Shown one piece after another: positions 29,382 through 48,381 of a stretch of DNA of 64,000 nucleotides. The DNA is from a virus (taxonomy: Duplodnaviria > Caudoviricetes). The translations under genes were made by a program, and so were the position numbers. Position 1 is the first letter of the stretch; each line of letters starts with the position of its first letter. The notes below the pieces were generated by a model. That model saw nothing but the letters and a program-made list of their open reading frames with translations. It made no database searches and was not told where the DNA came from. Where the stretch lies: IMG/VR virus record IMGVR_UViG_3300028175_000001; one strand, written 5' to 3'.

Positions 29382-30722
29382 TTACATTAAGTTATTTACT
29401 CTTACAATTCTGTAATACTCGTTGCCTGCGGCACCAGCATTATCTGCACTAATATCTGCACTACCTGAGCTTGTGCTATCTGAAGCTCCAGTTGCAAATG
29501 GATTTCTTACAAGACCATAACGAGTCTTAAATCCAATTTTTGGCTGGAAAGTGCTTGTATCAACTGCACGTACCATTTGTAACGGAACGTATGGGCAGTA
29601 GAACATACCAGCATCATATGAAGATGATCCTTTATATCCAACTACAAAATAGTTAGCATCATTTGTTACTGCATATGGATCAACATAAACACGATAACGC
29701 CCGTTAAGTACACCAACAAAAGTATTTCCTGCATCATCAGGATTAAGATTGTTGCTGTCAAGAGCAGGAGCGTAATCAAGAACTCCAGCCATTTGAAGTG
29801 CGGAAGCAACATCTGAAGAGGTCATAAGGATATTACCTTTTCCTCTACGTGTCTTCTTCGCAATCTCATTGGCTTCTCTCTCTATCTGGAACATGAGACC
29901 TTTAAACTTCTCTACGGACCAGCGACCATTTGAATCTGTGTCAAGATCAAAAATACCTGCAGTTGTGGTGTTATTTTGGGCACCGACTTTGGCTTCTCTG
30001 TAAATCTTACGAATAACTTCACGATTAATTTCTGCAAGAATCTCAGCGGAAAGAATATTGCTGAGTTCTGTTTCTGCATCAAGACCATGAACTGCTTTAA
30101 GATCCTGAGCAACTTCCATTGTGTAATCCGCTCTTAAGGCTCTTGTTTTCGCAGTAACAGTAACCTTCTCAATCGAGAAAGCCATGTTATTAGGCGTCAT
30201 TGACTCACCTGCGGCAGTTGATAATCCTCCACTTACTAAAGTTTGAGAAGCATTAGCCGTACCATCAGAATGAATATGAAGTCCCGGAACATTGCTGTCT
30301 TGGGCTATGCCAGAATTAGCAGAATAATTTGTGTCCGCTTCATTATAAAGTGCTTCTGGTGACTGATTCATTGTGACATATCTTGCTCTCATAGCAAAGA
30401 TAAGACCAGTAGGACCAGTCATTGGTTGCACACCACAAACATCGTATGCAATCAAATTAGGCATTGCTCTCCGAACAAGAGAAATCATAATAGGGTCATA
30501 TTTTGCAACACCCCCCTGATCAGGGAATGAGCCTGAAGCCTGGCCGGCCTCTGTCAAGAAATTTTGTGAAGAAAGGACTTGATTGTCTTCCTGCATGGAC
30601 TTTTCTTGATTCTCCAAAAGAACAGTTGTTACTGCCTTTCTATATGGGTCTGAAATTGTTCCCAATTCTGGATGATCAAGAATAGGAGCCCACTTTTTTT
30701 GTAATTGCTCTGATAAATACAT
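29382..30722 (-). CDS. 23: Major capsid protein (gp23)
   Basis: KWAPILDH, LLENQE, VQPMTGPTGLIFAMR, EINREVIR and QPKIGFKTRYG. Confidence 0.98.
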   Translation of the reverse strand: MYLSEQLQKKWAPILDHPELGTISDPYRKAVTTVLLENQEKSMQEDNQVLSSQNFLTEAGQASGSFPDQGGVAKYDPIMISLVRRAMPNLIAYDVCGVQPMTGPTGLIFAMRARYVTMNQSPEALYNEADTNYSANSGIAQDSNVPGLHIHSDGTANASQTLVSGGLSTAAGESMTPNNMAFSIEKVTVTAKTRALRADYTMEVAQDLKAVHGLDAETELSNILSAEILAEINREVIRKIYREAKVGAQNNTTTAGIFDLDTDSNGRWSVEKFKGLMFQIEREANEIAKKTRRGKGNILMTSSDVASALQMAGVLDYAPALDSNNLNPDDAGNTFVGVLNGRYRVYVDPYAVTNDANYFVVGYKGSSSYDAGMFYCPYVPLQMVRAVDTSTFQPKIGFKTRYGLVRNPFATGASDSTSSGSADISADNAGAAGNEYYRIVRVNNLM

Positions 30723-30741
30723 GTGTAAATCTCCTTAATTG

Positions 30742-31941
30742 TTATTTAATAATAGTTCTAGAAATAGCTGATGCATATTTTTTGATATTTTCAGGCGCTT
30801 GTGCCATTGCATCGTCTGAAGAATTTTCTTCATTGAATTCCATATCATCTTGTGTATCTTCGATTAAAACGGTTTTTGGATTAATCGTTTCTTCTGCACG
30901 GAAATACTTGTCTTTAATAATCTGAAGTTTTTCAGTATAGGAATCTTCATTTTCATATCCAATACCCTCAGCCAATTTAATCATTTTTTCTTGATCAACT
31001 TCAGTCATTCCTTCTGAAACCATATACAAAGAATCCATCTTTTTGTACTCTTTGAGGTCTTTAGATGAATCAATGTTTTTTTGTATTTCAGAATTTAATG
31101 ACTCTTCAAGGTCTTCAACCTTAGCGAATAGGTCATCAACAAGATCAACCTTTTCGTCAGGAATATCAACATAATGTTCGACAAACAGATTTTTAAGACC
31201 AACCATAAAATCTTCAACGATTTCTGAACGAATGCCCTTATCAACGGCAAGTTCATTTTCTTGCATCCATTCATTAACAACATAATTCATGAAATCATCT
31301 ACTTTTTCAATCATAACACTATGGTTATTTTCGATGGCTTCTTGAAGTTCTGTTTTATATTGTTCATCGAGTTTGTCTATTCTTGTGGAAACTTCATCGT
31401 TGACTCTAGCAAAAACTGCGGCTTCAAATATAGTAGCCGCCTTTTCTTTAAATTCGTCTGACAGTTCTTCTCCCTCAATAAGGGCTTGAACATCACTCTC
31501 TAAATCAAATTCTTCTCTAGTAACAACTTCTCGTGTTTCTTTTTTATTTTCGGAAACAATTTCATTACCTTCTTCGTCGAATTCGGCTTCATCAATTTCG
31601 TTAAGCGCACCGAGAATTTCAGCAACTTCATCTTTGCTCATCTCGTCTAACTTATCATAAATTGATTTAATAAGTGACATTTTTGATGCACTTTCAGAAA
31701 CTCCTCCTTTATCAGCAGGACGCTTCTTAGCAGATGGCACCCCTTTTGTAAAATCTGGTTTGGGCCCATCGGGAACCTCGTTATTTACTCCCGTATCTAT
31801 TGCTTTTTTGGGAGCTTTTTTAATTGGTTCTTTATTTTTTCCAGCACCTGGATATGAAGTCTCATGTACCTGAGATTCTTCATTTGTAATATCCTCTTGA
31901 GTTTCCTCTTGAGTTTCCTCTATTACGTTTTCTTCTGACAT
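30742..31941 (-). CDS. 22: Prohead scaffolding/core protein (gp22)
   Basis: Acidic coiled-coil, FKEKAATIFEAA, YVVNEWMQENELA and GLKNLFVEHY. Confidence 0.92.
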   Translation of the reverse strand: MSEENVIEETQEETQEDITNEESQVHETSYPGAGKNKEPIKKAPKKAIDTGVNNEVPDGPKPDFTKGVPSAKKRPADKGGVSESASKMSLIKSIYDKLDEMSKDEVAEILGALNEIDEAEFDEEGNEIVSENKKETREVVTREEFDLESDVQALIEGEELSDEFKEKAATIFEAAVFARVNDEVSTRIDKLDEQYKTELQEAIENNHSVMIEKVDDFMNYVVNEWMQENELAVDKGIRSEIVEDFMVGLKNLFVEHYVDIPDEKVDLVDDLFAKVEDLEESLNSEIQKNIDSSKDLKEYKKMDSLYMVSEGMTEVDQEKMIKLAEGIGYENEDSYTEKLQIIKDKYFRAEETINPKTVLIEDTQDDMEFNEENSSDDAMAQAPENIKKYASAISRTIIK

Positions 31942-31990
31942 TTGATAACTCCTTAATTTTGTGAGAATTTTGTTTTCTGTCTCATGTTTA

Positions 31991-31998
31991 TATTTATA
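31991..31998 (-). promoter_or_regulatory. T4-type late promoter TATAAATA
   Basis: Exact consensus on the minus strand upstream of gp22. Confidence 0.75.
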
Positions 31999-32001
31999 TA
32001 A

Positions 32002-32646
32002 TTATAGATTTGAAAGAAAACTATTAAACGCTTTTAACTTTACATTCTCTAGTTTAATGGAAGAGGATTTGTTAATTTCTTTTTTAATAAACGAAAGAGC
32101 TTTTTCTTTAATAACCCCTGACTCCCAAACCCATTCTTTTCCTTCCATGATTCCTTGAACAAATGCCTCGGGTGCAGAAGGATCAGCAACTATATCAGCG
32201 GCTGTTGCTAAATAAAAATCATCTTTTACATATTTTGTTCCACCCTTTTCTTCTAAAGACCCCATTCCCCTAGAAGAAACGCCTAACTGTGCGCCATTTT
32301 CAATAAGATTTTGCACAATTTTTCCATATGGAGTGTCCATAATTTTTGCTTTACCAATAACATTATTACCGTCTTCTTCCAGCTCGGTAATCATATGAGA
32401 CACCCTTTCTAAATTTATACCAGGACCATCTGGATGCCCCAATTCTCCAAATGCTCTTTTTTTGTTAACATAATTCTCATTATATCTCTGAATTTCTTTC
32501 ATAAGAATTTCTTTGGGATAAACTCTTCCATTTTTATTTTTCACTTCTGCCATCATGAACGGTCCATGAATATATAGAGACTTTTTCCCATTGATAGTTT
32601 CTGTAATATATTCTATATTTTCTGTAATTTCTGTAATTAATCTCAT
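32002..32646 (-). CDS. 21: Prohead protease (gp21)
   Basis: NKNGRVYP, GELGHP, GVSSRGMGS and DIVADPSAP. Confidence 0.96.
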   Translation of the reverse strand: MRLITEITENIEYITETINGKKSLYIHGPFMMAEVKNKNGRVYPKEILMKEIQRYNENYVNKKRAFGELGHPDGPGINLERVSHMITELEEDGNNVIGKAKIMDTPYGKIVQNLIENGAQLGVSSRGMGSLEEKGGTKYVKDDFYLATAADIVADPSAPEAFVQGIMEGKEWVWESGVIKEKALSFIKKEINKSSSIKLENVKLKAFNSFLSNL

Positions 32647-35727: not shown

Positions 35728-36621
35728 TTACTTTAATGCTTCCAAAAACCAGTCTATTCGTTTTTCTTCTTCTAAAAGGTATTTAGTAAACGGTTTTGCT
35801 ATTTTACCATATTGGCAACTTTCAATAAAGGGTTTATCTTCTGATAAAATGGTCGGTACAAAGTTTTTCGCACTCGTTTTTATAACGTCCGCCATTCGTT
35901 CATCCATACCTTCTTTATTAAAATATCCTTCATATACTACTGTTGTTTCATTATGTTTTTCGGGAATAAAATAACCAATAAACGTCACAATATCAGAAAT
36001 ATTTGATATAAACAAATTAGGAAATATATAGATATTTTCCCATTTCCATTCATCAATATATTTTTTATATCGTTGAGGTGCTTCTGAAACTATTCGTTCT
36101 AATGAATGTTTTCCATATCTTATTTGTTCTGGAATATGGTCTAATGAAAGAAATGGTTTTAACATATTTTTAGATTCTTTATGTACGTGTTTTACATGCT
36201 GGTATTCTATAACATTTTCAACAAATAATTTCCAATTTGCGTTAATTTTCAACTCGTAATGAAAAAAATGATTATTGGCTTTATAATTATATTTGCGTAA
36301 TAAAGAAATCATTGAAGGATCGTGTTCACCTACAAACAATAAATTTTTATATCTGTAATGAGGATATTGTTTTGCATGAGACTGGTCTTTACCATGATAA
36401 CCACATACAAATTCTTGATTACCATATCCTAGGGGGTGTATTAAGGAAAGTCTATGGTCACAAACATTATCATAAACAGCACCATCTCTAACAACAACTG
36501 GGTGTTTTCCTATAAGAAAACTGTGATAATCATTTTTACGTAATGAACGATACCCAGAATCTACAAACATTCCTTTTAAGAATATTTTTTCTATTTCCTC
36601 ACTAAATCGTTGTTTTTCCAT
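35728..36621 (-). CDS. Rieske non-heme iron oxygenase (ring-hydroxylating alpha-subunit-like)
   Basis: CDH...CGYH Rieske ligands, NWKLFVENVIEYQHVKHVH mononuclear Fe site, C-terminal EDKPFIESCQ. Confidence 0.85.
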   Translation of the reverse strand: MEKQRFSEEIEKIFLKGMFVDSGYRSLRKNDYHSFLIGKHPVVVRDGAVYDNVCDHRLSLIHPLGYGNQEFVCGYHGKDQSHAKQYPHYRYKNLLFVGEHDPSMISLLRKYNYKANNHFFHYELKINANWKLFVENVIEYQHVKHVHKESKNMLKPFLSLDHIPEQIRYGKHSLERIVSEAPQRYKKYIDEWKWENIYIFPNLFISNISDIVTFIGYFIPEKHNETTVVYEGYFNKEGMDERMADVIKTSAKNFVPTILSEDKPFIESCQYGKIAKPFTKYLLEEEKRIDWFLEALK

Positions 36622-37718
36622 TCTCTTTCAGGGATCATAGGCTTCATAAATTTGTTATAAACCATAGTATCTTCAACACGGGACTGTAAATTAAGAATGT
36701 TTCGTATATCTTTACGTGTTTCTGTAAATTGTGTTTTATAGGGTTCTTGAGAATAATAGTTATAATCTTCAGGAATTAAATGACAATAATTACATGGTGT
36801 ACGGTATGCTACTCGTTCATCTACAGGACCTATTCTATTATGTAAAGTTATAGAATTATCAAAAATACATATATCATTATTTTGCTGATATTTATGGTGA
36901 TAAATATATTCATCTACAAATAATTCTTTGTCTAAATCATCTAAAAACTTAGTTCTCTCTACGGTGCCAGGAGAATAGTGTAGTCCTTTTATTCCTCCAG
37001 GAGATGTAATGACCAGTGGAAGTTCAATCGGTTCAAACGTTTGATTCCACCGAAATAAATCATCTTGATCTTTGTCAATTTCAGGCGCAGTTTCATAATT
37101 CTGATATTTAAAAATGATGGTCATATCATCTAATTCTCTTTTAAAAGAATCTCTTTGCTTCTCGTACCAAGAAGCAGTAGTAGCAAATCCTGTTGAAGTA
37201 CCAACCATTCCTTTTATGCCCATTAAAGCAATTCCTGGATTAAATACAATTGATCCCGGTTCATTAGAGTGCCAAAGCAATTCTCCTTCAGCAAACATTC
37301 CTATGGCCTTTCCGTTTTCTTTTATACCAGATATACGGTGTAGTTGAGATTTCCAAGGAATCTTTTCCCCTATAAATTCATCACCTCCGGCCCCCATCCA
37401 AGCTAAATCTTCTGCATGTTTTCGGTCTTCGTCTTCTATAAGATTACGTTTAAATAGACTATAGAAATTGCTTATTCCCAATTTCTCTTTATATTTTTTT
37501 CTAATCCTATATCCATCTAAAATAAAAGGATCACCCCAAAGAATCATTTTTCGTTCAAATTCATTAGGATGAATATCAACACCTCTAATGATTGTTACTA
37601 AATCAGTAAGATGGTCTTTTCCTAGTTCTATCCAATCATTATCAGACATTTCTGCTAATGATATATCATCTATAAATCGACCATAATCACCGAGTCCGGG
37701 TATTTTACTAGTTTTCAT
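36591..37718 (-). CDS. TauD/TfdA-family 2OG-Fe(II) dioxygenase
   Basis: LLWHSNE, STGFATT and IFDNSITLHNR motifs. Confidence 0.75.
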   Translation of the reverse strand: MKTSKIPGLGDYGRFIDDISLAEMSDNDWIELGKDHLTDLVTIIRGVDIHPNEFERKMILWGDPFILDGYRIRKKYKEKLGISNFYSLFKRNLIEDEDRKHAEDLAWMGAGGDEFIGEKIPWKSQLHRISGIKENGKAIGMFAEGELLWHSNEPGSIVFNPGIALMGIKGMVGTSTGFATTASWYEKQRDSFKRELDDMTIIFKYQNYETAPEIDKDQDDLFRWNQTFEPIELPLVITSPGGIKGLHYSPGTVERTKFLDDLDKELFVDEYIYHHKYQQNNDICIFDNSITLHNRIGPVDERVAYRTPCNYCHLIPEDYNYYSQEPYKTQFTETRKDIRNILNLQSRVEDTMVYNKFMKPMIPEREWKNNDLVRK

Positions 37719-38515
37719 TGCTTACTCCGTTCATATTTTTCATTTCCCATATCTTCTGCAATGTCTTTTATTATATCAAATACTAATTTCTGAAGATCAA
37801 AATTATACGTAAAGATAAATTCATAATAATTTTCACCCGGTAATGGTGCAGTTCGTAATAATGCTGGTTTCCAAAATCCAGTATTAAAACTTAACGTAAT
37901 TCTATTGTTCGTTTGTAGAAAATTAAAATTTTCATTATCAACCAATTCATTTTTTTCCCAAACTTTATTAATAGCAGTTCTTAAAAGAGCAGTTAAATAA
38001 TTTAATCCATCAATTGAACACGCTGTCCATGTTACATATGCTCTACTCTGTGATGATTCATTAATTAAATGTCCCTCACATGATCCAAAAGTTCTAATAC
38101 CATCAAACACGTTGAAAACATCAACTAACGGCTTAATGCCCGTTTCTATTTCAAAAGTATCATTGGTCACACCTCCTCCCATAGAACCACTAGACAAATC
38201 TTCAGTTGGCAAAAGGTCTAATTCATTAAATAAGGCTATATCTTCAGTAGAATTTATATCTTTCCAATTATAACCAATTTCATATTTTTTAAGAAATTCA
38301 CTAAAAACACTTATTAATAGTTCATATTTTAGATTAGCATGTCCACAAATTAATACATATTCTTTTTTTCTTTTCGCTCGTTCAATGTCTTGATCATTAC
38401 CGCTAATCTTATCTACTAATGAAATTAATAACTTATTTAACAGGTCCACTCGAATTTTCGAATCAGGATCATGTACAATAATATAATTCTGTCTCCACGT
38501 ATTAATTGTAATCAT
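37715..38515 (-). CDS. Hypothetical SCEGH-motif protein (TYW3-like motif), paralogue of 48353-49174
   Basis: GIKPLVDVFNVFDGIRTFGSCEGH...AYVTW. Confidence 0.6.
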   Translation of the reverse strand: MITINTWRQNYIIVHDPDSKIRVDLLNKLLISLVDKISGNDQDIERAKRKKEYVLICGHANLKYELLISVFSEFLKKYEIGYNWKDINSTEDIALFNELDLLPTEDLSSGSMGGGVTNDTFEIETGIKPLVDVFNVFDGIRTFGSCEGHLINESSQSRAYVTWTACSIDGLNYLTALLRTAINKVWEKNELVDNENFNFLQTNNRITLSFNTGFWKPALLRTAPLPGENYYEFIFTYNFDLQKLVFDIIKDIAEDMGNEKYERSKQ

Positions 38516-39300
38516 ATTTTTCTCAAAAATTTCTCTATAATAAAAACATTTAAAAAATCTGTCTCATACCATTTATCTGACATTTTCGTATTATATGCAC
38601 TAGGATCATAATGGTGATTATTATGTAACATTGATCCAGTAAAACCAGACAACCATTGCCCGAGTGTATTGTTTGTACTTTTATCTGTAGTTTCAAAATT
38701 ACGATAGCCCCACATGTGTCCTATAGTATTAACTAAACCTCCAGTATGAAGTGTTATAATACTAGGTAATGCAAAAAAGAAAACAGGTATTCTCCAATCA
38801 ATTAATGCAGTTAAAACAAGTGGTGGAACAACTATAGTCAAATAATTTCTATGTAATAATTTTAAGAACGGATCTTTCACAAGATCAGCATACAGTCTAT
38901 GTTCATATATTTCCTGTCTCCAATTAGTAAACCATACATCAAAAGGACTTAAATAATGTGGCGAATGAGGATCTTCAGGTGTGTCAGATTTCTCATGATG
39001 ATATCTATGAAATGCAACCCACGGAAATTGAGTTCCTTGGTATATAAAGATTCCGCATATAGCCATAAATTTATGGGCCCAAGATTTTGCTTTAAAGCTT
39101 CTATGCGCAAAATATCTATGGGCGCCTATTTCTCCTCCTATATGTCGAAACAATATAACTCCTACAAGAGTTAACCACAGCCAGTACCATGAACTATATA
39201 ACAATCCTATTACTGATGCAATATGAAATAAAATCATGAAGCTAAAATATGCTTGCCATGAATTATTATACTTTGAGATAATTTTTAATAAACTTCCCAC
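38512..39300 (-). CDS. Membrane fatty-acid desaturase (delta-9-like) 3
   Basis: His boxes HRYFAH, HRYHH and HNNHH with transmembrane segments. Confidence 0.92.
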   Translation of the reverse strand: MGSLLKIISKYNNSWQAYFSFMILFHIASVIGLLYSSWYWLWLTLVGVILFRHIGGEIGAHRYFAHRSFKAKSWAHKFMAICGIFIYQGTQFPWVAFHRYHHEKSDTPEDPHSPHYLSPFDVWFTNWRQEIYEHRLYADLVKDPFLKLLHRNYLTIVVPPLVLTALIDWRIPVFFFALPSIITLHTGGLVNTIGHMWGYRNFETTDKSTNNTLGQWLSGFTGSMLHNNHHYDPSAYNTKMSDKWYETDFLNVFIIEKFLRKI

Positions 39301-40054
39301 AATAGTCCCTTTCTTTTCCTGTTACATTTTCATCCCAATTACTAGGATCTTGATGATGATTATTATGCAATCCACTTCCTAATGTTAAATCATTAACCCA
39401 CCAATTGTTTGTACTTTTATCTGTAGTTTCAAAATTACGATAACCCCATTTATGACATACAATATTAACTAATGCCGCGCCATGAATAATTCCTACACTG
39501 GGTATACTAATTAAAAACACAGGCAATCTCCAATCTATTAATGACAATAGTAAAAAAGTTATACCTATGATATAAAAATAATATTTATGGCTTTTTTTGT
39601 ATATCGGATCTTTTAATAAATCAGCATAGTGTTTTATGGGCAAATTAACTTTCCGCCACAATGTTAACCAAACCCTCCACCAAGAAATAATATGAGGTGA
39701 ATGGGGATCTAATTCTTCATCAGAATTCATATGGTGGGCCCTATGCGCTATAGCCCAGGAGATAGGGGAACCATAACAATTAAATATTCCTAATGTTGAT
39801 AACAAAAAATGTCTTATTGGACCTGTCTCAAAAGAGTTATGCGCAACATACCTATGATTACCTATTTCACTTCCAAATTTACCAAACAATAAAAATCCAA
39901 TAGGAATCCATAGATACCACGGCAATGGAGAATATATAATTCCTATTACTGCTAAAATATGATTCAATATCAAAAGTATTCTTACACCTATTTGATGTGT
40001 CATTTTGATAGAAAATCCGCACTCTGTAAAGTTTGTGCTAATTGCTGTTGCCAC
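39266..40054 (-). CDS. Membrane fatty-acid desaturase (delta-9-like) 2
   Basis: His boxes HRYVAH, HRAHH and HNNHH. Confidence 0.92.
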   Translation of the reverse strand: MATAISTNFTECGFSIKMTHQIGVRILLILNHILAVIGIIYSPLPWYLWIPIGFLLFGKFGSEIGNHRYVAHNSFETGPIRHFLLSTLGIFNCYGSPISWAIAHRAHHMNSDEELDPHSPHIISWWRVWLTLWRKVNLPIKHYADLLKDPIYKKSHKYYFYIIGITFLLLSLIDWRLPVFLISIPSVGIIHGAALVNIVCHKWGYRNFETTDKSTNNWWVNDLTLGSGLHNNHHQDPSNWDENVTGKERDYCGKFIKNYLKV

Positions 40055-40290
40055 AAAGTTACATCTCCTGTAACTTTTCCGCGACTTGTTAAATTAAACT
40101 GTTCGGATAAATTATTCAAACAGTCCAATATTATTTCTTCTTTCTTATTTTCTGGTTGACCCGCAGTTGCAATAAGAGCAATCCATTCCTGACATCCACC
40201 CGGGTATGAACCATAAATCGTATTTTCAAGTGATGTCTTTAATATTTCACTTACTTTTTCTATATTGCCCATGTTATTCTCCAAAATCAT
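40000..40290 (-). CDS. Hypothetical protein
   Basis: 96-aa ORF bridging the oxygenase and desaturase 2; start may be MGNIEK. Confidence 0.55.
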   Translation of the reverse strand: MILENNMGNIEKVSEILKTSLENTIYGSYPGGCQEWIALIATAGQPENKKEEIILDCLNNLSEQFNLTSRGKVTGDVTLWQQQLAQTLQSADFLSK

Positions 40291-41050
40291 GATAAGTTTG
40301 TTTTTCTGTTATTGATTCTTTCACTCTGATATCGTTCCATTGCTGTTTTGTCATTCCATGTACTTGAGATTCGTGATCTATGTCCATAAACATGATCAAA
40401 CTATGTCGTTCTTTTTTTGTTGAATTTGATACCCTATGGGGAGTAGATTTTAATTTATTTTGGGTCCACCACTGCATAAAATCACCACAATTAACTATTA
40501 TAAAATCATCACCAGGATGTTTTATCAAAGTCCATTCGCCATCAATGCATACTTCATATTCTTCTACAGGATCACATACATGCACTAATGTCAATGTTCC
40601 GAAATCACAATGACTGCCTAATCGATTATTTCCTATTTGATCTTTATAATATTTTACAAATATCAAATCATTACTTGATTTCTCGTGTTTCAGTGTTATT
40701 GAATTAGGCGGCAATTTCATATATTCTTCAATAGCATATAATATATCACACCCAACTTTTATATATTGGCTCCTTATAGTATTTACGCACTCCCAATCAT
40801 CAGACATATTTTTTAGAACAACTCTTTCGTTTGCTTCTCCGGGAAACCTTTTTGAACTTGATCGACCTTCTTCGTACATAGGTAATGTCTTTAAATCCGC
40901 CGCTTTTAATTTTTCACGTAATTGTTCTAATGATCCTTTCATATCAATAAAAGGATTTACTACTAATAAAAAACCAGTATTTTTAAAACTATCTACAATT
41001 GATTTAGAATTCCAATCAGACGAATTAAATACTATTGAACTTGGAGCCAT
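40274..41050 (-). CDS. IPNS-like 2OG-Fe(II) oxygenase
   Basis: LGSHCDFGTLTL (HxD), IIVNCGDFMQWWT, STPHRV and RHSL. Confidence 0.88.
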   Translation of the reverse strand: MAPSSIVFNSSDWNSKSIVDSFKNTGFLLVVNPFIDMKGSLEQLREKLKAADLKTLPMYEEGRSSSKRFPGEANERVVLKNMSDDWECVNTIRSQYIKVGCDILYAIEEYMKLPPNSITLKHEKSSNDLIFVKYYKDQIGNNRLGSHCDFGTLTLVHVCDPVEEYEVCIDGEWTLIKHPGDDFIIVNCGDFMQWWTQNKLKSTPHRVSNSTKKERHSLIMFMDIDHESQVHGMTKQQWNDIRVKESITEKQTYHDFGE

Positions 41051-41790
41051 TTTATAAACCTTGCGCCGGGATCGATTTCACCAAAACGATATTTATTTTG
41101 GTCATTATGATGATTCAAGTGCCACCCCTCTCCACCTGTTATCAATGCTATCAATAAATTATTAGAAGGTTCACCATGTCTATGACAATAAGCATTTATA
41201 AGACCGTATCCGTGATTTGCAAATACAATAGGAAGACAATAACCAAATACTAACAATAAAGGATCTATTAAAAAAAATATTAATATGATTAATGCATGTA
41301 ATTTAAGATAATTATCATAAAACCATTTTAAACTAGAATTTTTACTAAGACTTAACCAATCTTTAAGGTCTTCTCTTTCTGTTGGTATATACCTAAATCC
41401 TGCTTGAAACCAACCACTTGTATATACCCACCAAAAACCCTTATGTTTCGGACTATGTGGATCTTTCTCTGTATCGACGTATTTATGATGATCCCTGTGA
41501 ACACCTATCCATACTAATGCGGGTCCAGGATTTCCGAATAATCCAATAATTTGACTATAAATTTCATACCACTTGCCGATCTTAAAACTATTATGAGTCC
41601 AATATCTATGGTAGCCACTTGTGCCAGCAGTTATATGAACAAATTGCCACCATATAAAACTATACAATAACATCCACCATTCGCCATAAATTATTGCGGG
41701 TATAATAACTAAATGACAAAATACATTAATAGACCAAATACTATACCTGTTTAATGTAGCATTTTTTTCTAATGAGCCCATATATAACAA
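41032..41790 (-). CDS. Membrane fatty-acid desaturase (delta-9-like) 1
   Basis: His boxes HRYWTH, HRDHH and GEGWHLNHH. Confidence 0.92.
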   Translation of the reverse strand: MLYMGSLEKNATLNRYSIWSINVFCHLVIIPAIIYGEWWMLLYSFIWWQFVHITAGTSGYHRYWTHNSFKIGKWYEIYSQIIGLFGNPGPALVWIGVHRDHHKYVDTEKDPHSPKHKGFWWVYTSGWFQAGFRYIPTEREDLKDWLSLSKNSSLKWFYDNYLKLHALIILIFFLIDPLLLVFGYCLPIVFANHGYGLINAYCHRHGEPSNNLLIALITGGEGWHLNHHNDQNKYRFGEIDPGARFIKWLQVQ

Positions 41791-42143
41791 ACTCCTACTA
41801 CATATTCATCTGTATCAGACAATGATATTCTTACATCTTGTCTTGGGCCTTTGTATTCTTTCGATACTGAAGCATGTACAACAGGAAATCGAACCCCCCT
41901 GCTTGTCAAATGCATGTAACTAACATCTAATCTTAAATAAGGTGAAGCTATTGCTTTAGAATATGCTTCCTTAACACACCAACATTTAGTTAAATATCTA
42001 GCAGTCATAGGACTGGGCGCATTTCTTTTTTCAATATCTGTTAATATTTTATTAACAAATTTGTCTCCCCATTTATCATATATCTTTTGAATAGGTTCGA
42101 TTGTTTGTAAATCAATACCTATTAAATTTTCTCTAGCAGACAT
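41769..42143 (-). CDS. acpS: Holo-ACP synthase (AcpS-type phosphopantetheinyl transferase)
   Basis: IGIDL, WCVKEAYSKA and ISLSDT motifs; size 124 aa. Confidence 0.85.
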   Translation of the reverse strand: MSARENLIGIDLQTIEPIQKIYDKWGDKFVNKILTDIEKRNAPSPMTARYLTKCWCVKEAYSKAIASPYLRLDVSYMHLTSRGVRFPVVHASVSKEYKGPRQDVRISLSDTDEYVVGVCYIWAH

Positions 42144-43150
42144 AAATCAACTTGAAATCCTGGTCCATAAGAAATCATAACCAGTTTTCCTTCTTTCATA
42201 AAATCATTTTGTAAGGTTTTTATTACACTTGTGGCAGACATATTACCAAATAATCTAAACATCTCAAAAGAAGAATCTAATGCACCGTCAGGTAAATTTA
42301 ATCCTTCTGCAGTATTTTGCAAAACAACTTTTCCACCAGGATGACATATCCAATGATCAATATCATGACCTTTAATAAATTCTTCTACTTTTGGTAATAA
42401 CGCATCAGCGGCTTTTGGTAGTTCCTGCAATTTAGTAGATTCTACATTATATAATAATCCTGCACTTGTTCCTTCAAGAGTAATAAAATCTTCTGTATCA
42501 GGTAAAATATGAGATGCATGTTTAAGTACTTTCCAACCTCCGTGTTCATAATCATCACCAGCCATTAAAATAGCACTTACACCATCACCGAAAATAGTAA
42601 TACCAAATACTGTAGTAAGAGAACGATCTTCAGGATTTAAATTCATTGAAACTAAATCATTAGTGAGACAAATTACTACTTTAGTTGGGTTTGCTTTTAA
42701 AAATTCATCTGCAATTTGTATCACATGCGTACCACCATTACACGCTAAACCAAACATGGGTATTTTAATTACAGAATCAGGAAAATCAAAATGACTAAGC
42801 AATTTATGTGGTACAGTAGGAATTCCTACACCTGTCATTGTTGTAGATGTTATCATACACACATCTTCGGGAACAAGAAGGTCCAATTCCAATACTGCTT
42901 CTAATGATAACTTATGTACTACTTCATTAAATGTTTTATTTTTTTGCGTAAAAGTTTGAGACTGTTCCCGCATTGTCTCAATAGGATAACAAGTATGTCT
43001 ATATTCAACTCCTGTCAATGGCATATATCTGTCAAATACTCTACCCGAATAACCTTTTTCTTGCCACCATTCTTTCAGCTTTACTTTGAAGTCATCATTA
43101 TGTAATCGATTTTCAGGATGTTTAGTTACTATTTGTAAAATTTTACTCAT
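42122..43150 (-). CDS. Type III polyketide synthase (chalcone-synthase fold)
   Basis: Catalytic triad GLACNGG (Cys), ICHPGG (His) and FGNMSA (Asn); FGDGVSA; C-terminal SYGPG. Confidence 0.92.
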   Translation of the reverse strand: MSKILQIVTKHPENRLHNDDFKVKLKEWWQEKGYSGRVFDRYMPLTGVEYRHTCYPIETMREQSQTFTQKNKTFNEVVHKLSLEAVLELDLLVPEDVCMITSTTMTGVGIPTVPHKLLSHFDFPDSVIKIPMFGLACNGGTHVIQIADEFLKANPTKVVICLTNDLVSMNLNPEDRSLTTVFGITIFGDGVSAILMAGDDYEHGGWKVLKHASHILPDTEDFITLEGTSAGLLYNVESTKLQELPKAADALLPKVEEFIKGHDIDHWICHPGGKVVLQNTAEGLNLPDGALDSSFEMFRLFGNMSATSVIKTLQNDFMKEGKLVMISYGPGFQVDLCLLEKI

Positions 43151-43752
43151 TCTGCCTCTATTGTCATTTCTCTAATACGACCACTAAAATTAATCATATG
43201 ATCTATACATTCTACACATTGTTCAGGAGAAAGCATATTTGGTTCTAGCTTATGATCATATACTCGATTTACGAGAGTTGCCAATCTTGTTGTTCTTGGA
43301 GTTTCCACCCAACCAGGTCTTAGTAGTGAAATTTTACATCCGTTATGTTTTGCAGTCTTTTCATAACATTCTAGATTAATTTTATCAAGTGATATTTTAC
43401 CTGCTGTATAACGACTATGGCCTATAGGATAATCATCTGTATCTTTTTCAGATGCGATAGAACTAACAGAGATTATATGTTTATTTGGATCATCTTTCCA
43501 TAAATGAAAAACGAATAAAAGTGCTTGTGTTTGAGCCCACCATTTGTAGTCATTATATGCATTGTTTATGAATATATCACCTTTAGGATCAAACCATTCT
43601 TTAATATGTTCTATATCATGTTTATTATATCGCCTACTATGACCTTCTACCTCAATTAAGTCTTTGTATTTTGCGAGATAATTTCCATCATATTTTTCAC
43701 TTAGTGCTTTTCCTATACCGGAAGTCACACCAGTTATAATCATTTTACGCAT
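43147..43752 (-). CDS. Short-chain dehydrogenase/reductase
   Basis: ITGVTSGIG (TGxxxGxG), INNA, YTAGK (YxxxK) and PGWVET. Confidence 0.85.
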   Translation of the reverse strand: MRKMIITGVTSGIGKALSEKYDGNYLAKYKDLIEVEGHSRRYNKHDIEHIKEWFDPKGDIFINNAYNDYKWWAQTQALLFVFHLWKDDPNKHIISVSSIASEKDTDDYPIGHSRYTAGKISLDKINLECYEKTAKHNGCKISLLRPGWVETPRTTRLATLVNRVYDHKLEPNMLSPEQCVECIDHMINFSGRIREMTIEAE

Positions 43753-43996
43753 TTGCTTTTCGCTCTACCATATTATATAAATCGTTTATTGTTGTTGCTT
43801 TTTGAAACTCTTCTGCATCTAAGGCAATATTAAAAGTATCTTCAATAATTATCATTGTTTCTAAAATATGAATAGAATCAATTTCTAAATCTAAAGCAAT
43901 TTTACTATCGGACTTTATCTCTGGAAAATCAATACCCGCGGCCGCTTCTTCAAACGCGGATTTACATTTTTCTTCAATTTCTTGTCGTGTGTACAT
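43745..43996 (-). CDS. Acyl carrier protein
   Basis: 83 aa, acidic, DLEIDSI Ppant serine, IEDTFNI and TTINDL. Confidence 0.9.
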   Translation of the reverse strand: MYTRQEIEEKCKSAFEEAAAGIDFPEIKSDSKIALDLEIDSIHILETMIIIEDTFNIALDAEEFQKATTINDLYNMVERKANA

Positions 43997-44756
43997 CGTA
44001 TAAATCCTCTTCAGTTATTTGTTCAATGGGTTCAGCAATATAATTAAGGTCACTATGTTTTCCTGTTAATCCGTAAGCATCTGAATGATGACATAATTTA
44101 TAAGACCCCTCTTTATATCCTGCTATGCTAATTAATAAATTAAACCGAGCTGTTAAACCGGCATTAATTACAGTATGATTAATGCAACTATCATCTTGAT
44201 AAGAACTCCCATCTGCTGGTAAATAATATGATTGATCGTCAATAACAAAACGACATCCTGCATTAACTTCAAGGGGTATATGTATATTTTCAAAACTATC
44301 TTGATGCCAATTTATAGTAGTTAAAGGGTTTAACATCGTTATTCTAACTCGGTCTATCTCATAATATATAGACAACTTTTTATAAATGTTATGAAATTCT
44401 GTATCTAAATAATCTTCATTAAAAATAGTATAATCTTTACGTGTTTCAAATCTTTTTAATTTTCTATTAAAATTTGTCCCATCATGTATTATGCGCTTTA
44501 ATATATTGTACTTATAACCAGAAGAAGATGAAAAAACTGATGGTCTTTGAGGACAAAAACTTCTTACAGAATCATATAGTCTTTGTTCTGGTAAACAGTC
44601 TTTTGAATGTAAAAGTCCCAATACATAAGCATCATTAAAGTCGTCTCTTGTATTGAGATCCCATGGAGCGAATAAAGATTTTAGCGGCTGAAGTTCTTTT
44701 TGTAAACGATCTATATCAAATTCCCAAGGTAATTTTTTTACATAAATTGGTCTCAT
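43974..44756 (-). CDS. Aspartyl/asparaginyl beta-hydroxylase-like 2OG-Fe(II) oxygenase
   Basis: RVRITML, WHQD, IHIPL and HTVINAG...R motifs. Confidence 0.75.
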   Translation of the reverse strand: MRPIYVKKLPWEFDIDRLQKELQPLKSLFAPWDLNTRDDFNDAYVLGLLHSKDCLPEQRLYDSVRSFCPQRPSVFSSSSGYKYNILKRIIHDGTNFNRKLKRFETRKDYTIFNEDYLDTEFHNIYKKLSIYYEIDRVRITMLNPLTTINWHQDSFENIHIPLEVNAGCRFVIDDQSYYLPADGSSYQDDSCINHTVINAGLTARFNLLISIAGYKEGSYKLCHHSDAYGLTGKHSDLNYIAEPIEQITEEDLYDVHTTRN

Positions 44757-45490
44757 TGTTGATGTATATCAAATTCAAGCATTTCACAAGCAGTTTCTAA
44801 TTCAGTAATAGTATCCAAATCTGTTTCCTGGAGCTGACTAAATGTTTCTCTAATATATGCCAGAAGATCCGTTTGTTGTACAGAAGTTAAATTTGCTAAA
44901 ACATATTTATTTTCTTCATCCATAGCATCATATCTTATCGCAGAATCATAATGATTTTTATATATGATCATCATTTTTAAAAAATAGGAATATTTTGAAT
45001 ACGATAAACTTAATAATTTATCCTGAAGTGATTTAGTATCAGGATCAAGCCATGAACCGGTTTCTAATTCATCTGCTGACGGACCCCTTGCGGAACCATC
45101 ATCATGTGTTCCGGGATTATCTGATATCCATGATAACCAATTATCACGCATAAATGATGTACAATATTTTGTACTAGCATTTAATCTTTCATCAGTAAAC
45201 CATGATATATCTTGTTGCGATAAAAAAGTTCTACTGAAAACGGGTTCTGCATCTTCGAAGATATTAGACGGGTTTAAAATGCATCCTTGATACTTAAACA
45301 TATAAGTTCTATCTAACCATTGATCTTCTGTAATACCACATTCCAAATACACATCTTTATTGGTTATTAAAATATCAACTATATCATTAAACCTAGCAAT
45401 ATCATCACTCTCCATTAGAACCATAATTTGTCGGTCAGCCTTTAATTGTTTCCAGCTAGGATTACTTTTAAATACTTCGGCTTCAGCCAT
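44753..45490 (-). CDS. Acidic hypothetical protein
   Basis: 245-aa ORF coupled to its neighbours. Confidence 0.7.
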   Translation of the reverse strand: MAEAEVFKSNPSWKQLKADRQIMVLMESDDIARFNDIVDILITNKDVYLECGITEDQWLDRTYMFKYQGCILNPSNIFEDAEPVFSRTFLSQQDISWFTDERLNASTKYCTSFMRDNWLSWISDNPGTHDDGSARGPSADELETGSWLDPDTKSLQDKLLSLSYSKYSYFLKMMIIYKNHYDSAIRYDAMDEENKYVLANLTSVQQTDLLAYIRETFSQLQETDLDTITELETACEMLEFDIHQQ

Positions 45491-45700: not shown

Positions 45701-46611
45701 TTTAGTATACCATCTTCTCCAGGCATTACTACAGGTAGACTTGGATCAAGCGCATATTCATTTGGGAGATTTACAGTATCGTCACAATATGGAAGTTTTC
45801 CTTCAGTTGATAATATATTCCCGTATTCATCAGCTTTTTCATTTTTTTCTCCAGTAATTTCTTCTATAGGATCGTCAATGGGTCTATTGTTTTGGCCGGC
45901 AAGTCGAACATCAACTATGCCCTGACCAGGAGTGTCTGCACCCTGTACTGCTTGAGGATGTTTTGCGGGAGGATATGGCCCTCCCGCATGTAAATCCAAA
46001 GAACCAACTCCATCTTGACCATGCGCATTTCCTTGAGGTTTAAATATTTGCCCTCCAACACCTTCATTAACAAAAGCATCAACATCAATAATCGCATCAT
46101 CAAGAGTTTTTTTACTAAGGTCATCACGAGCAGTGTCTAGATATTCCATATAGTCTTTAGTGTTGCCTATAGCCTTAATGAGATGTTCTTTACATTGATT
46201 ATCACAATATTTATGAAAGTCAGAAGCAAACTGGCAATTACAAATCATTCCTTTTACATATTCTGCCTGTTCACCTGCTTCTGTTGTATAAGTAGGAGAG
46301 TCGTGTTCAACCATTCCTTCCAATTCTCTCAGAGTGTATTCAACAAGCTCATCAACCTTTTTGTCTTGATTTTCATCTACTTGAATATTTTGATGAGCAG
46401 TTGGCAATCCACCGGCCGGCTGACCTGTATCGGCCGTTAAAGTTTGACTATTCATATCCGTCAACATCTGTTGCTTTTGCAACGCACTTAATCCCAAATC
46501 TAATGACTTTAGTAATGTCATACCTATTGGCTGTGTTATTTCATCATCCAATAGTGGTGATAATGCGGCAATAGCGGCATTTGTGCATTCAATAACTTTA
46601 TTTTCACTCAT
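45697..46611 (-). CDS. Acidic hypothetical protein with Cys cluster (CNC...CDNQC)
   Basis: 304-aa ORF directly after radical SAM 3. Confidence 0.7.
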   Translation of the reverse strand: MSENKVIECTNAAIAALSPLLDDEITQPIGMTLLKSLDLGLSALQKQQMLTDMNSQTLTADTGQPAGGLPTAHQNIQVDENQDKKVDELVEYTLRELEGMVEHDSPTYTTEAGEQAEYVKGMICNCQFASDFHKYCDNQCKEHLIKAIGNTKDYMEYLDTARDDLSKKTLDDAIIDVDAFVNEGVGGQIFKPQGNAHGQDGVGSLDLHAGGPYPPAKHPQAVQGADTPGQGIVDVRLAGQNNRPIDDPIEEITGEKNEKADEYGNILSTEGKLPYCDDTVNLPNEYALDPSLPVVMPGEDGILK

Positions 46612-47956
46612 GATTTATCTCTCTGGGGAAATTTCTTTTTTGGGTTTCAAGCATTTCTTCTGCTATGTGATCTAAACCAGAACCCTGGCCAGAGGTATCT
46701 ATTATTCCCAATCTATCAATAGCAGTTGTCGGATGACCGGTTCTAGGCAATATTCTATTTTTTTCTTCTTTATCTCCTGCATCAGGAAGATGTTTCATTC
46801 CTTTTCCTACTCTCACTAATCCATTTTGTATTGATGCCAATCCTTGTTCTGTATAATAAAATCTATGATCTTTACGTTCTCCACAAGAATTACACATATC
46901 ACAAAACATGTGGCATACAGGAGAAAATAATTTATTTTTTATCCATTGTTTCCGTAAATAATCTATCTGTTCTTTTAATAACCAATTAATTTTTGCTTTA
47001 TCTTCGGGACTATCTTTACCCGCTAAACTTTCATCTATAGATGTAACAACTCTATCCGGTCCATATGTCTTGACTATACGCAAAATATCCTTAGCAAAAC
47101 ATTGTACATTTGATCTGTGAATAGTATACCTGGCCCTCCATTTAATTTGGTCTTGGGGTGGCATATTGGAATTATAATCTGAAATATTTTTAAATGCTTT
47201 TAATACATCTGGAGTAGAATCTTTACCAGAATAATATACCCTATCTAAATTTCCTGCACCATCAAAACTAATATCAAAAGAAACCCGTTGTTTAATTCCT
47301 GGATTAGATTCCAAAAAAGTAATAACACTATTAAAAAATTTTGGCTTACTTAAAAGTATACCATTAGTTGTTATATTGAAATGTAAATTGTGCTTCTGAG
47401 AATATGCATAATTCATAAGATATTCACAATTTTTCCATTCTAACATCGGTTCACCACCAAAAATACAAAATAAAGTTTGTTCATCTGGTCTATCGGTTTT
47501 ATTAATATCATCTACAAGTTTTTTCAACAATGGTGGTTCGGGTAAATGTTTTGGTCGATTTTCTAAATGTTCATAGCAATAAGAACAATTTAAATTACAT
47601 TGACTTGTCATATAAAATAAATGTATACCTCCACCGTGTGCAACTCTTGTATTTTCGTTTTCACCATGAGTAAAATGTCTATCCATAATTTCATTAACAT
47701 TGGCTTCTGCTAAATCAAGTCTTCCTTCTTTTAGTGCTTTAACACGGTCATAATGTTCATCTTTTGATACGCTTTCTACATGTTGTTTTACTACTTGATT
47801 CAATTCACGATCAGTTAGAGTTAATAATTTTTTAACATCATGTTTTTCATATTTACATACACCTTCTCCTGTTTTCAATCCTCGTTCATAATCAATAACA
47901 CCATCAAGAGATCCCATGGTGGGTAAAACTTTTTTAGAGCGTGTTAGTGTTTTCAC
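46604..47956 (-). CDS. Radical SAM enzyme 3
   Basis: CNLNCSYC, FGGEPML, TTNG and ISFDG; C-terminal CHMFCDMCNSC. Confidence 0.92.
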   Translation of the reverse strand: MKTLTRSKKVLPTMGSLDGVIDYERGLKTGEGVCKYEKHDVKKLLTLTDRELNQVVKQHVESVSKDEHYDRVKALKEGRLDLAEANVNEIMDRHFTHGENENTRVAHGGGIHLFYMTSQCNLNCSYCYEHLENRPKHLPEPPLLKKLVDDINKTDRPDEQTLFCIFGGEPMLEWKNCEYLMNYAYSQKHNLHFNITTNGILLSKPKFFNSVITFLESNPGIKQRVSFDISFDGAGNLDRVYYSGKDSTPDVLKAFKNISDYNSNMPPQDQIKWRARYTIHRSNVQCFAKDILRIVKTYGPDRVVTSIDESLAGKDSPEDKAKINWLLKEQIDYLRKQWIKNKLFSPVCHMFCDMCNSCGERKDHRFYYTEQGLASIQNGLVRVGKGMKHLPDAGDKEEKNRILPRTGHPTTAIDRLGIIDTSGQGSGLDHIAEEMLETQKRNFPREINHE

Positions 47957-48381
47957 TATTTTCCCCTTACAACTGGTCTTTCGTCCAGTTTTCTGCGGAT
48001 TTGTTCTTCTGGATTTTGTTTTAGAATATATGCTATGTTTTTCATAAGTCTAGGAAAATCAATGTTATAATTAAATAAATGTGACTTTATTCTTGTACCA
48101 TCTGATTCAGGATTCCAAGAATCATAAAGTAAATTTTTATCTCTCGCTTGTTTTTTTGATGGGGTGTCTTCTAGCTGTACTTGATTAATAAGAGTTTGAA
48201 TATCTCCGTCTTTTGCGGCCCTTGCCGATTTTTCATATCGCTCTACTGATTTTTTATTTTTATTATTTATTACAGCCTCTTGTCCTGAAATCGCAGGATG
48301 CCATCCTTCTTCACGATCTAGATCATTTAGTTCTTCTGGAGTTCCGTGTATTTTATTTTTTTCCATGTAACAATTTTCCAA
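47956..48381 (-). CDS. Hypothetical protein
   Basis: 141-aa ORF between the SCEGH protein and radical SAM 3. Confidence 0.65.
   Translation of the reverse strand: MENCYMEKNKIHGTPEELNDLDREEGWHPAISGQEAVINNKNKKSVERYEKSARAAKDGDIQTLINQVQLEDTPSKKQARDKNLLYDSWNPESDGTRIKSHLFNYNIDFPRLMKNIAYILKQNPEEQIRRKLDERPVVRGK

Follow-up and report, generated by a model that had tools for sequence, protein, structure and literature searches.

The bacterial long-chain alkylpyrone and alkylresorcinol systems are the closest described counterparts of the phage locus presented here. They are built on type III polyketide synthases (PKSs) and include Pks11, Pks10, and Pks18 of M. tuberculosis, ArsABCD of Azotobacter, SrsABC of Streptomyces, and BpsAB of Bacillus. 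In Azotobacter ArsABCD, the fatty acyl starter of the type III PKSs is carrier-bound, and a phosphopantetheinyl transferase (PPTase) function is coupled to them. The phage PKS has its superfamily, catalytic triad, and fold in common with these enzymes, and the long-chain alkylpyrone synthases Pks11 and Pks10 are its best solved and Swiss-Prot matches (TM 0.91-0.93). However, it is only 26-27% identical to the enzymes of these systems and belongs to a separate, long-branched, virus-only clade. The phage cassette lacks a type I FAS, and no Srs- or Bps-type methyltransferase or monooxygenase is recognized in it. It instead adds a free-standing acyl carrier protein (ACP), an AcpS-type PPTase, a minimal short-chain dehydrogenase/reductase (SDR), two to seven desaturases, and several non-heme iron oxygenases, all in a lytic phage setting.

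Off-loading of an ACP-tethered chain by a type III PKS has a precedent in CylI of cylindrocyclophane biosynthesis, which converts a carrier-delivered β-ketoacyl substrate into a resorcinol. CylI ranks fourth to tenth in the fold search with the phage PKS (TM 0.87-0.88) and is about 21% identical to it, but it works after type I PKS modules and an enzyme that activates the fatty acid, both of which are absent in the phage. In the plant elongase (KCS-KCR-HCD-ECR) and sporopollenin (PKSA/B and TKPR) pathways, a condensing enzyme of type III fold is paired with an SDR-type reductase, and the long-chain acyl substrates of the pair are hydroxylated by other enzymes. These pathways are CoA-based, eukaryotic, and membrane-bound, use other SDR subfamilies, and are close to the phage proteins in sequence at the superfamily level only.

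Desaturase triads act on carrier-bound fatty acids in polyyne pathways (PMC9828172). Polyyne and alkyne cassettes (cay/pgn and JamABC) contain a dedicated ACP and three membrane desaturases, and the locus described here likewise has three beside its ACP. However, the polyyne cassettes depend on two further enzymes, a fatty acyl-AMP ligase and a thioesterase, and gain from rubredoxin or ferritin, none of which was found in the phage. The phage desaturases are SCD/Δ9-like, while cay and pgn lack a type III PKS and an SDR. Δ9-type membrane desaturases also occur in other marine T4-like phages: the cyanophage vFAD genes occur singly, with host membrane lipids as their proposed target, and the paper that describes them makes no mention of ACPs or polyketides (Roitman et al. 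2017, PMC5776448). Here, two to seven paralogues are instead tied to an ACP/PPTase/PKS core.

The PKS of Streptomyces phage ZL12 is the only type III PKS match among 50,697 deposited phage records, and such enzymes are very rare across phage collections, in agreement with the original prediction that such genes are unusual in lytic phages. The ZL12 enzyme is 24% identical over 68% of the query and comes from a phage of another host phylum, with no sign of an ACP, PPTase, or desaturase context at the match. A literature search found no publication describing such a cassette in a lytic phage. An auxiliary metabolic gene of a phage typically encodes one enzyme that enhances a host pathway; this lytic phage instead has several genes that form a carrier-protein-based biosynthetic cassette around a type III PKS.

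The cassette lies on the minus strand within the head-gene region of the phage. In the window, meaning the whole 64,000-nucleotide stretch of DNA analyzed, positions 41769-43996 are wholly occupied by four ORFs encoding ACP, SDR, PKS, and PPTase. Their ends overlap successively, as had been noted earlier, by 8, 4 (ATGA), and 22 nt, and the flanking genes overlap the core by a further 23 and 22 nt. No fewer than 10 distinct phage contigs carry the cassette. The order ACP-SDR-PKS-PPTase is kept in 10 distinct loci with PKS identities of 67-92% (L numbers below designate these and other loci). The four genes are inseparable in all 10 and form the invariant center of a larger block with a 2OG oxygenase (9 of 10 loci) and two to seven Δ9-type membrane desaturases (at least two in every locus), while TauD, Rieske, and AspH-like oxygenases are variable members. 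The cassette is under purifying selection (ω 0.01-0.30). A gene for a hotdog FabA/ApeI/ApeP-like dehydratase adjoins the PKS in one subclade (L004 and L097) and is absent from the other eight loci, this window included; both hotdog genes match dehydratase families and not thioesterases. The region had been called a complete module, which stands insofar as the four genes are intact. It does not stand in full, as the search turned up neither an enzyme to load the ACP nor a thioesterase to release the product, and the four genes are only the core of a bigger conserved block with desaturases and oxygenases.

The condensing enzyme (342 aa, 42122..43150, minus strand) is a type III PKS. It scores 36.2 and 33.7 bits against the Pfam Chal_sti_synt_N and Chal_sti_synt_C models (cut-off 27) and also exceeds the cut-off for PF08392 FAE1_CUT1_RppA (29 bits). 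The best 60 PDB matches by phmmer are all type III PKSs (Pks11, E 1.4e-29). The AF2 model (pLDDT 87.8) adopts the thiolase αβαβα fold, and its best 50 Foldseek matches are likewise all type III PKSs, with TM 0.91 to Pks11 (4jao) and 0.93 to Pks10, and further matches to CylI, THNS, BpsA, and PhlD. The predicted Cys-His-Asn triad is intact: C137, H270, and N303 line up with the Cys, His, and Asn of Pks11. C137 and N303 do not vary among 30 aligned sequences, and H270 is present in 29 of them; in phage cluster P0017, Gln replaces the catalytic His. F187-G188-D189 and G329-P330-G331-F332 are also invariant in this alignment, and the C-terminal loop reads YGPGF in the phage clade versus FGPGF in bacteria. 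F187 occupies what we take to be the gatekeeper position of CHS Phe215.

A FabH (KAS III) identity for this enzyme was rejected. FabH models give 38.6 bits against cut-offs of 249-292, compared with 70 bits for the NCBIfam DpgA model, and there is no FabH among the best 50 PDB or best 30 Swiss-Prot fold matches. Profile, phmmer, and Foldseek results thus agree on a type III PKS and not a FabH- or HMG-CoA-synthase-type enzyme. In phylogeny, the viral PKSs are monophyletic and form a separate virus-only clade (SH-aLRT 100%) with a long stem. The phage PKS sits on a very long branch and is at most 33% identical to any cellular enzyme, so substrate and product are not transferable by homology. No PKS above 31% identity was found in representative genomes of 185,579 cellular species, and no PKS of the phage clade was seen outside the cassette context.

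ACP (83 aa, 43745..43996, minus strand) carries its phosphopantetheine site at S41 in LEIDSIHILE, the DS site named in the original prediction. It matches PF00550 above the gathering cut-off (E 5.9e-7; 30.1 versus 20.8 bits), the NCBIfam ACP models at E 1e-10 but under their cut-offs, and the ACP family phrog_5934. The motif D-L-E/D-I-D-S41-I-H is the same in nine loci, with IDS41IH identical throughout (ACP ω 0.06-0.27). The PPTase (124 aa, 41769..42143, minus strand) is AcpS-type as predicted, with a single ACPS domain (PF01648, E 1.2e-10; 41.8 bits, cut-off 25) and matches to PDB holo-ACP synthases at E 1e-5. Its IGIDL and VKEAYSKA segments, which contain the GxD and (K)EAxxKA motifs, align with holo-ACP synthase 3qmn, and IGIDLQTIE and VKEA(Y/F)SKA are conserved in nine loci (PPTase ω 0.12-0.19). 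Complex prediction for ACP and PKS gave an ipSAE of 0.42, against 0.01 for the best control, where a score of 0.60 or below counts as a weak pass. Run-to-run agreement is at least 67% of contacts, and partner pLDDT is at least 77. Of 80 solved complexes, 58 attain the complex-score mark, as do 2 of 110 mismatched pairs. The model lends weak support to a contact between the phage ACP and PKS.

The minimal SDR (201 aa, 43147..43752, minus strand) is recognized by its motifs and its match to the FabG-like phrog_3142 (E 8e-9). It falls some 50 residues short of classical SDR length, in a trimmed subfamily that spans 169-208 aa, and its adh_short score of 26.3 bits is just below the 26.6 cut-off. 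The YxxxK motif reported earlier is Y115-x3-K119, accompanied by TGxxxGxG, NNA, and Ser-Tyr-Lys motifs. Residues G8..G14, S39-R40, N63-N64-A65, Y115, and K119 do not vary across 23 family members, and ITGVTSGIGK, INNAY, S95/S98, and Y115-x3-K119 are invariant or almost so in 23 homologues. The AF2 model (pLDDT 88) matches actinorhodin ketoreductase (actKR), FabG, and acetoacetyl-CoA reductase in Foldseek (TM by query only 0.6-0.69, rmsd 5-8 Å). The enzyme is probably an NADPH-dependent ketoreductase. Short-SDR cousins exist without any PKS and adjoin an AspH-like gene in L009-L011, so the SDR here may instead work with an oxygenase.

The flanking genes are also on the minus strand. Directly upstream of ACP, 43974..44756 encodes an Asp/Arg β-hydroxylase-like (cupin) oxygenase (260 aa; PF05118, E 1.2e-7), a family that sits between PKS and PPTase in L004 and L008. 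On the PPTase side are three paralogous membrane fatty-acid desaturases: paralogue 1 (252 aa, 41032..41790; PF00487, E 3.2e-9), with orthologues in L001 (83%) and L002 (57%); paralogue 2 (262 aa, 39266..40054; PF00487, E 5.2e-13); and the Δ9/SCD-like paralogue 3 (262 aa, 38512..39300), with HxxxxH, HxxHH, and HxxHH boxes. Paralogue 3 matches acyl-CoA desaturase 1 (4ymk) in PDB phmmer (E 7.4e-15) and an NCBIfam DesA-family model at E 1.6e-23, under its cut-off. Between paralogues 1 and 2 are a 2OG-Fe(II) oxygenase (258 aa, 40274..41050; PF03171, E 1.7e-15) and a conserved 96-aa ORF (40000..40290) that has no Pfam or NCBIfam match and is 51% identical to an ORF in L002. An orthologue or 2OG-family gene comes after PPTase in 9 of 10 loci compared; in L001, the 2OG-type matches are only distant (24%) and lie elsewhere in the block. 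Further along are a TauD/TfdA-family 2OG dioxygenase (375 aa, 36591..37718; PF02668, E 1.3e-8), whose orthologue is placed between ACP and SDR in L002 and L012, and a Rieske non-heme iron oxygenase α subunit (297 aa, 35728..36621; PF00848, E 5.3e-16). The Rieske motif reads C54-x-H56 ... C73-x-x-H76, and orthologues occur in L001, L005, L007, and L098.

The absence of an acyl-AMP ligase had been noted earlier. Indeed, no AMP-binding domain was found in the screened window ORFs of at least 395 aa or in two related IMG/VR records. A screen of the window and the two related records, covering part of the small ORFs, yielded no acyltransferase, thioesterase, or electron carrier, and none of the screened cluster ORFs matches a thioesterase family.

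It is fairly likely that the cassette is a phage-encoded, carrier-protein-dependent polyketide or lipid pathway expressed in lytic infection. The AcpS-type PPTase and ACP are both present, and the former would convert phage apo-ACP into holo-ACP. Because no ligase is present, the host is presumed to load ACP with a fatty acyl chain, perhaps with FAS II extending the chain while it is bound to the phage ACP, or with the PPTase moving acyl-phosphopantetheine from acyl-CoA. The SCD-like desaturases and the 2OG, TauD, Rieske, and AspH-like oxygenases may then put double bonds and hydroxyls on the chain or product. The PKS would condense an acyl thioester starter with malonyl units on C137 and free an alkyl polyketide; in doing so, it would also take over the off-loading that a thioesterase would otherwise perform. 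The translationally coupled SDR may reduce a carbonyl, either β-keto or in a ring, on the intermediate or the final product. Such a pathway would most probably yield a long-chain alkylpyrone, alkylresorcinol, or reduced derivative that is unsaturated or oxygenated. The compound would act in or on the membrane of the host, where it may serve in membrane remodeling or as a redox carrier, toxin, or signal.

Given the FabG/actKR-like SDR and the hotdog dehydratase of two relatives, the product may also be an acyl chain that has been reduced or elongated, and not an aromatic compound. The type III-fold enzyme would then act as a KCS/FabH-like condensing enzyme to yield a β-ketoacyl thioester, which the SDR reduces like FabG or KCR and the phage dehydratase (in some relatives) or host FabZ dehydrates. 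Together with the desaturases, this would supply elongated, hydroxy, or polyunsaturated acyl chains to the host membrane. Judged by the SDR's likeness to FabG and type II PKS ketoreductases and by the relatives' dehydratase, a reductive acyl-chain cycle fits better than an aromatic product. The PF08392 match, a dedicated ACP and PPTase typical of FAS-like systems, and paralogous desaturases suited to elongase/desaturase logic point the same way. Nevertheless, we consider such an elongation unit unlikely: the best sequence and fold matches are all cyclizing type III PKSs with FabH models much lower, no enoyl reductase or malonyl-CoA:ACP transacylase was seen, and 8 of 10 loci lack the dehydratase. 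Rieske ring-hydroxylase-type oxygenases, found in several loci, suit an aromatic product at least equally.

It is very unlikely that these are independent auxiliary metabolic genes in a hypervariable island, with desaturases fluidizing host membranes and oxygenases acting on unrelated substrates. The core four are inseparable and translationally overlapping, at least two desaturases accompany them throughout and the 2OG oxygenase almost throughout, an ACP with its own PPTase is purposeless without partner enzymes, and the clade's PKS keeps to the cassette. Such independence would nonetheless account for the differing oxygenase content and order among loci, the pairing of short-SDR cousins with AspH-like genes, the single viral Δ9 desaturases already described (PMC5776448), and the oxygenase-rich islands of marine T4-like phages, such as that of Pelagibacter phage Mosig, which has AspH-like, desaturase, and TauD genes and no PKS.

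In every sufficiently long locus, the same strand carries three radical SAM genes and a Cys-repeat gene upstream of the cassette. The cassette could make an acyl or polyketide group for the radical-SAM-modified Cys-repeat protein, giving a lipo-RiPP-like or lipidated virion component, and each half of the region holds one of two paralogues (37715-38515 and 48353-49174). The former (266 aa, 37715..38515, minus strand) has a 66% identical orthologue in L002; its sole lead is that it weakly resembles TYW3/MTHFR_C-type proteins in its features (score 0.83-0.88). This role is highly improbable, since no acyltransferase, condensation, or GNAT-type joining enzyme is recognized, adjacency in a phage island is weak evidence, and three conserved genes with no informative match separate the halves.

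Returning to the carrier-dependent pathway, the most likely function of the cassette, which is apparently virus-only, is to make an unusual modified lipid or polyketide while the phage infects its host. A more ambitious version is tentative and rather doubtful. In it, a widespread clade of ~235-kb marine T4-like phages would make its own specialized lipid in lytic infection, with the virus-only PKS off-loading phage-ACP-bound chains made polyunsaturated or acetylenic by phage desaturases. The resulting oxidized phenolic or pyrone lipid would possibly be attached to, or act with, the Cys-repeat protein, and the pathway would have been invented or long kept in viruses and not borrowed as a host gene. 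If the product is confirmed, the marine phage repertoire gains polyketide/lipid natural-product synthesis, and enzymology gains a compact ACP/AcpS/type III PKS/minimal-KR toolkit. It would also raise the question of the virus-made lipid's job in a marine host, whether membrane remodeling, redox chemistry, defense against competitors or grazers, or virion assembly.

The source is, from its sequence, a marine T4-like myovirus, and contamination with host DNA is excluded: T4-like core genes lie on both sides of the block, the major capsid protein is 64% identical to that of Pelagibacter phage HTVC008M, and the PKS belongs to a viral clade with no close cellular copy. The general risk of metagenomic misassembly and the Gln of cluster P0017 notwithstanding, there is next to no chance that the genes are host DNA, misassembled, or decaying, as strand and GC (about 32%) fit the T4-like surroundings, the arrangement recurs in independent assemblies from many studies, ω is far below 1, and no cellular genome searched holds a close copy. 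Contigs from four metatranscriptome libraries, for which carried-over DNA is a possible source, cover the block in tiled fashion with 99-100% identity. In marine metagenomes, near-identical DNA occurs in at least 14 runs, which come from at least 10 studies.

The four core genes form a set of minus-strand ORFs joined by overlapping ends (8, 4 and 22 nt), and both flanking genes overlap as well. The ACP gene (43745-43996) scores above the cut-off for PF00550, and its motif IDS41IH is identical across nine loci. The SDR gene (43147-43752) carries SDR motifs with a Pfam score just below the cut-off, the type III PKS gene (42122-43150) contains both chalcone/stilbene synthase Pfam domains, and the PPTase gene (41769-42143) encodes a 124-aa AcpS-type enzyme with conserved IGIDL and KEAxSKA motifs. 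The original prediction had placed an acyl-carrier module at 41769-43996, with coupled gene ends, a DS Ppant site in the ACP, an AcpS-type PPTase and an SDR; this span matches the four ORFs exactly, and each of these features is borne out.

The SDR is real but unusual. Its full motif set is invariant among 23 homologues, including an S39-R40 pair typical of NADPH binding, and family members range in length from only 169 to 208 aa. Fold matches of the SDR model (pLDDT 88) are actinorhodin ketoreductase, FabG and acetoacetyl-CoA reductases, all at just TM 0.6-0.69. Short-SDR cousins (169-185 aa, ~40% identity) adjoin an Asp/Arg-hydroxylase-like gene in three other marine phage-like contigs (L009, 3741-4881; L010; L011), which carry AdoMet decarboxylase, EamA transporter, ClpP and glycosyltransferase genes and no PKS.

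Within the type III PKS superfamily, the PKS is a new, deeply branching enzyme that is apparently confined to viruses. Its best NCBIfam match is DpgA at 70 bits, with FabH at 38.6 bits. In a PDB sequence search, type III PKSs account for all of the best 60 matches; M. tuberculosis Pks11 comes first (E 1.4e-29), and the nearest structure is 26% identical. The AlphaFold2 model (pLDDT 87.8) superposes on Pks11 and Pks10 with TM 0.91-0.93, followed by CylI, THNS, BpsA, PhlD and plant enzymes, and FabH is not among its top structural matches. Pfam, NCBIfam, PDB and fold matches thus agree on a type III PKS rather than FabH. The predicted Cys-His-Asn triad is also intact: a 30-sequence alignment shows no variation at C137, at N303, in the F187-G-D motif or in GPGF 329-332, and hardly any at H270. 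R51, likewise invariant there, corresponds to the DKRY-motif Arg, which binds the CoA phosphates in chalcone synthase; this is offered as a lead.

Two further PKS-type entries are unusual. In the phage PKS cluster P0017 (17 member sequences), Gln replaces the catalytic His (CQPGG) in the same alignment; either a genuine variant or an error in sequencing may explain this. P0121 is a 4818-aa metagenomic protein with 12 separate type III PKS-like stretches, ~25% identical to the query PKS; we know of no comparable repeated architecture in the type III PKS family.

Metagenomes contain ~20 close PKS protein clusters at 67-100% identity, beyond which identity is at most 33%. For 185,579 prokaryotic species, searched through their representative genomes, the best match is 31%. 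In a 158-sequence tree, the phage PKSs are monophyletic (100% branch support, SH-aLRT), and their stem measures 1.7 substitutions per site. The tree gives this clade no supported sister group, so no donor lineage can be named. Host contamination is ruled out by the phage-only PKS clade, the identity of at most 31% to cellular genomes and the presence of the same cassette in other loci.

Ten distinct loci were compared (the window and the contigs L001, L002/L012/L013, L004, L005/L006, L007, L008, L097 and L098). The gene order ACP-SDR-PKS-...-PPTase is kept in all ten, and each contains two to seven SCD-like desaturases, the seven-desaturase form being that of L002 and L012. A 2OG-Fe(II) oxygenase adjoins the core in nine; L001 is the exception, where the only 2OG-type matches are distant ones in another part of the block. 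TauD, Rieske (CxH...CxxH intact) and AspH-like oxygenases are variable members. Pairwise dN/dS of the four core genes is 0.01-0.30, and the value for Des2 against L001, an alignment artefact, was disregarded. Wherever a contig is long enough, the block (35728-44756 in the window) is bordered by T4-like head genes and by the same trio of radical SAM genes.

The window belongs to a T4-like myovirus. PHROG matches (E down to 0) include DNA polymerase, a gp46-like nuclease, helicase, major head protein, scaffold, portal and sheath, and Pfam adds large terminase, clamp loader and a DnaB-like helicase. For the major capsid protein, identity is 64% with Pelagibacter phage HTVC008M, 62% with Methylophilales phage Melnitz and ~60% with cyanomyoviruses. 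Genes lie almost exclusively on the minus strand, and GC is ~32% along the entire window, with no deviation in the cassette region. A same-strand stretch of ~22 kb of non-structural genes (34269-56750) separates the portal gene (56777-58459) from the genes for prohead protease, scaffold and major head protein (29382-32646). Among its members are a fibre gene, the gene of a Cys-repeat protein, the three radical SAM genes, the PKS cassette and oxygenases. The T4 late-promoter word TATAAATA is absent within 34.3-56.7 kb, and promoter and terminator scans gave no signal beyond chance level. CheckV completeness of two relatives implies genomes of ~235 kb, and a 237.6-kb contig carries one SDR cluster. 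A C-5 cytosine DNA methyltransferase (PF00145, E 1.7e-52) is found among the replication genes at 16963-18222.

Type III PKS genes had been expected to be unusual in lytic phages, and the surveys agree. Among 50,697 deposited phage records, the only match is Streptomyces phage ZL12, at 24% identity; against the same records, megablast with 8.5 kb returned no match and tblastn with the ACP protein found nothing. Neither the PKS nor the PPTase has a family in PHROGs, and pattern scans of 2.9 million IMG/VR contigs yielded only three contigs, all of the same PKS clade. Literature searches found nothing on type III PKS in lytic or marine phage, or on the combination of ACP, AcpS, SDR, type III PKS, desaturase and oxygenase. 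At least 14 marine or seawater metagenome runs, drawn from 10 or more studies, hold DNA near-identical to the window. Between 38 and 84% of the window's words are present in six metatranscriptome libraries, and contigs of four of these RNA libraries (three studies) tile 36-48 kb at 99-100% identity, which is compatible with expression, though also with DNA carry-over.

The novelty lies in the cassette, which joins a free-standing ACP and an AcpS to a type III PKS with a minimal SDR, and adds several each of SCD-like desaturases and non-haem iron oxygenases. Neither ligase nor thioesterase was found in it, and it sits within the head-gene region of a lytic phage. The data show directly what the parts are, that they are intact and tightly linked, that they reside in a virus and that they are under selection. 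In the proposed pathway, the PPTase would prime the phage ACP, and the host would supply the acyl chain, since a search of the window's large ORFs and of two related records turned up no AMP-ligase. Desaturases and oxygenases would tailor the chain; membrane desaturases of the cay/pgn polyyne triad, which act on ACP-bound acyl chains, are a precedent (PMC9828172). The acyl thioester would then serve as the PKS starter, the PKS would free an alkyl polyketide, making a thioesterase unnecessary, and the SDR may reduce a keto group. A complex prediction for PKS and ACP scored 0.42 (best control 0.01), with at least 67% of contacts agreeing between runs and partner pLDDT of at least 77, and returned no interface; 58 of 80 solved complexes reach the score mark, as do 2 of 110 mismatched pairs, and passes of 0.60 or less count as weak. 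It lends weak support to ACP-PKS contact.

On balance, we favour a cyclising, off-loading PKS. The main rival, a KCS/FabH-like elongation cycle (KS-KR-DH), is unlikely; it draws on the FabG-like SDR and on a FabA/ApeI/ApeP-like hotdog dehydratase of 141-143 aa inserted beside the PKS in two loci of one subclade (L004, 11040-11465; L097, 4195-4626), a gene absent from the window. An island of AMGs with no relation to one another, as the PKS-less oxygenase/desaturase island of Pelagibacter phage Mosig and the pairing of SDR cousins with AspH-like genes in PKS-less contigs might imply, is quite improbable; against it stand the invariant core and its dedicated ACP and PPTase, which point to a shared pathway.

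Beyond the PKS and its partners, the island contains further conserved genes. Upstream of the cassette, all sufficiently long loci (window 46604-52674; L002 292-5913; also L004, L005, L007, L012 and L098) carry three radical SAM genes (two SPASM-like) and a gene for a Cys-rich repeat protein, and a functional link to the cassette is possible. The conserved gene upstream of the ACP (44753-45490) has no match in Pfam or PHROGs, and its ESM Atlas matches are all below 0.8. Of two paralogues with 26% identity, one follows the desaturases (37715-38515) and the other lies inside the radical SAM block (48353-49174); the sole clue to their nature is a weak resemblance to SAM-binding proteins of the TYW3/MTHFR_C type. 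Mosig (L003, MT647606.1 51765-68307), an isolated pelagiphage, carries a looser relative of this island type, with two Asp/Arg-hydroxylase-like genes, a desaturase-domain gene 30% identical to window 38512-39300, and TauD, FMN reductase, peroxiredoxin and MoaA-like radical SAM genes.
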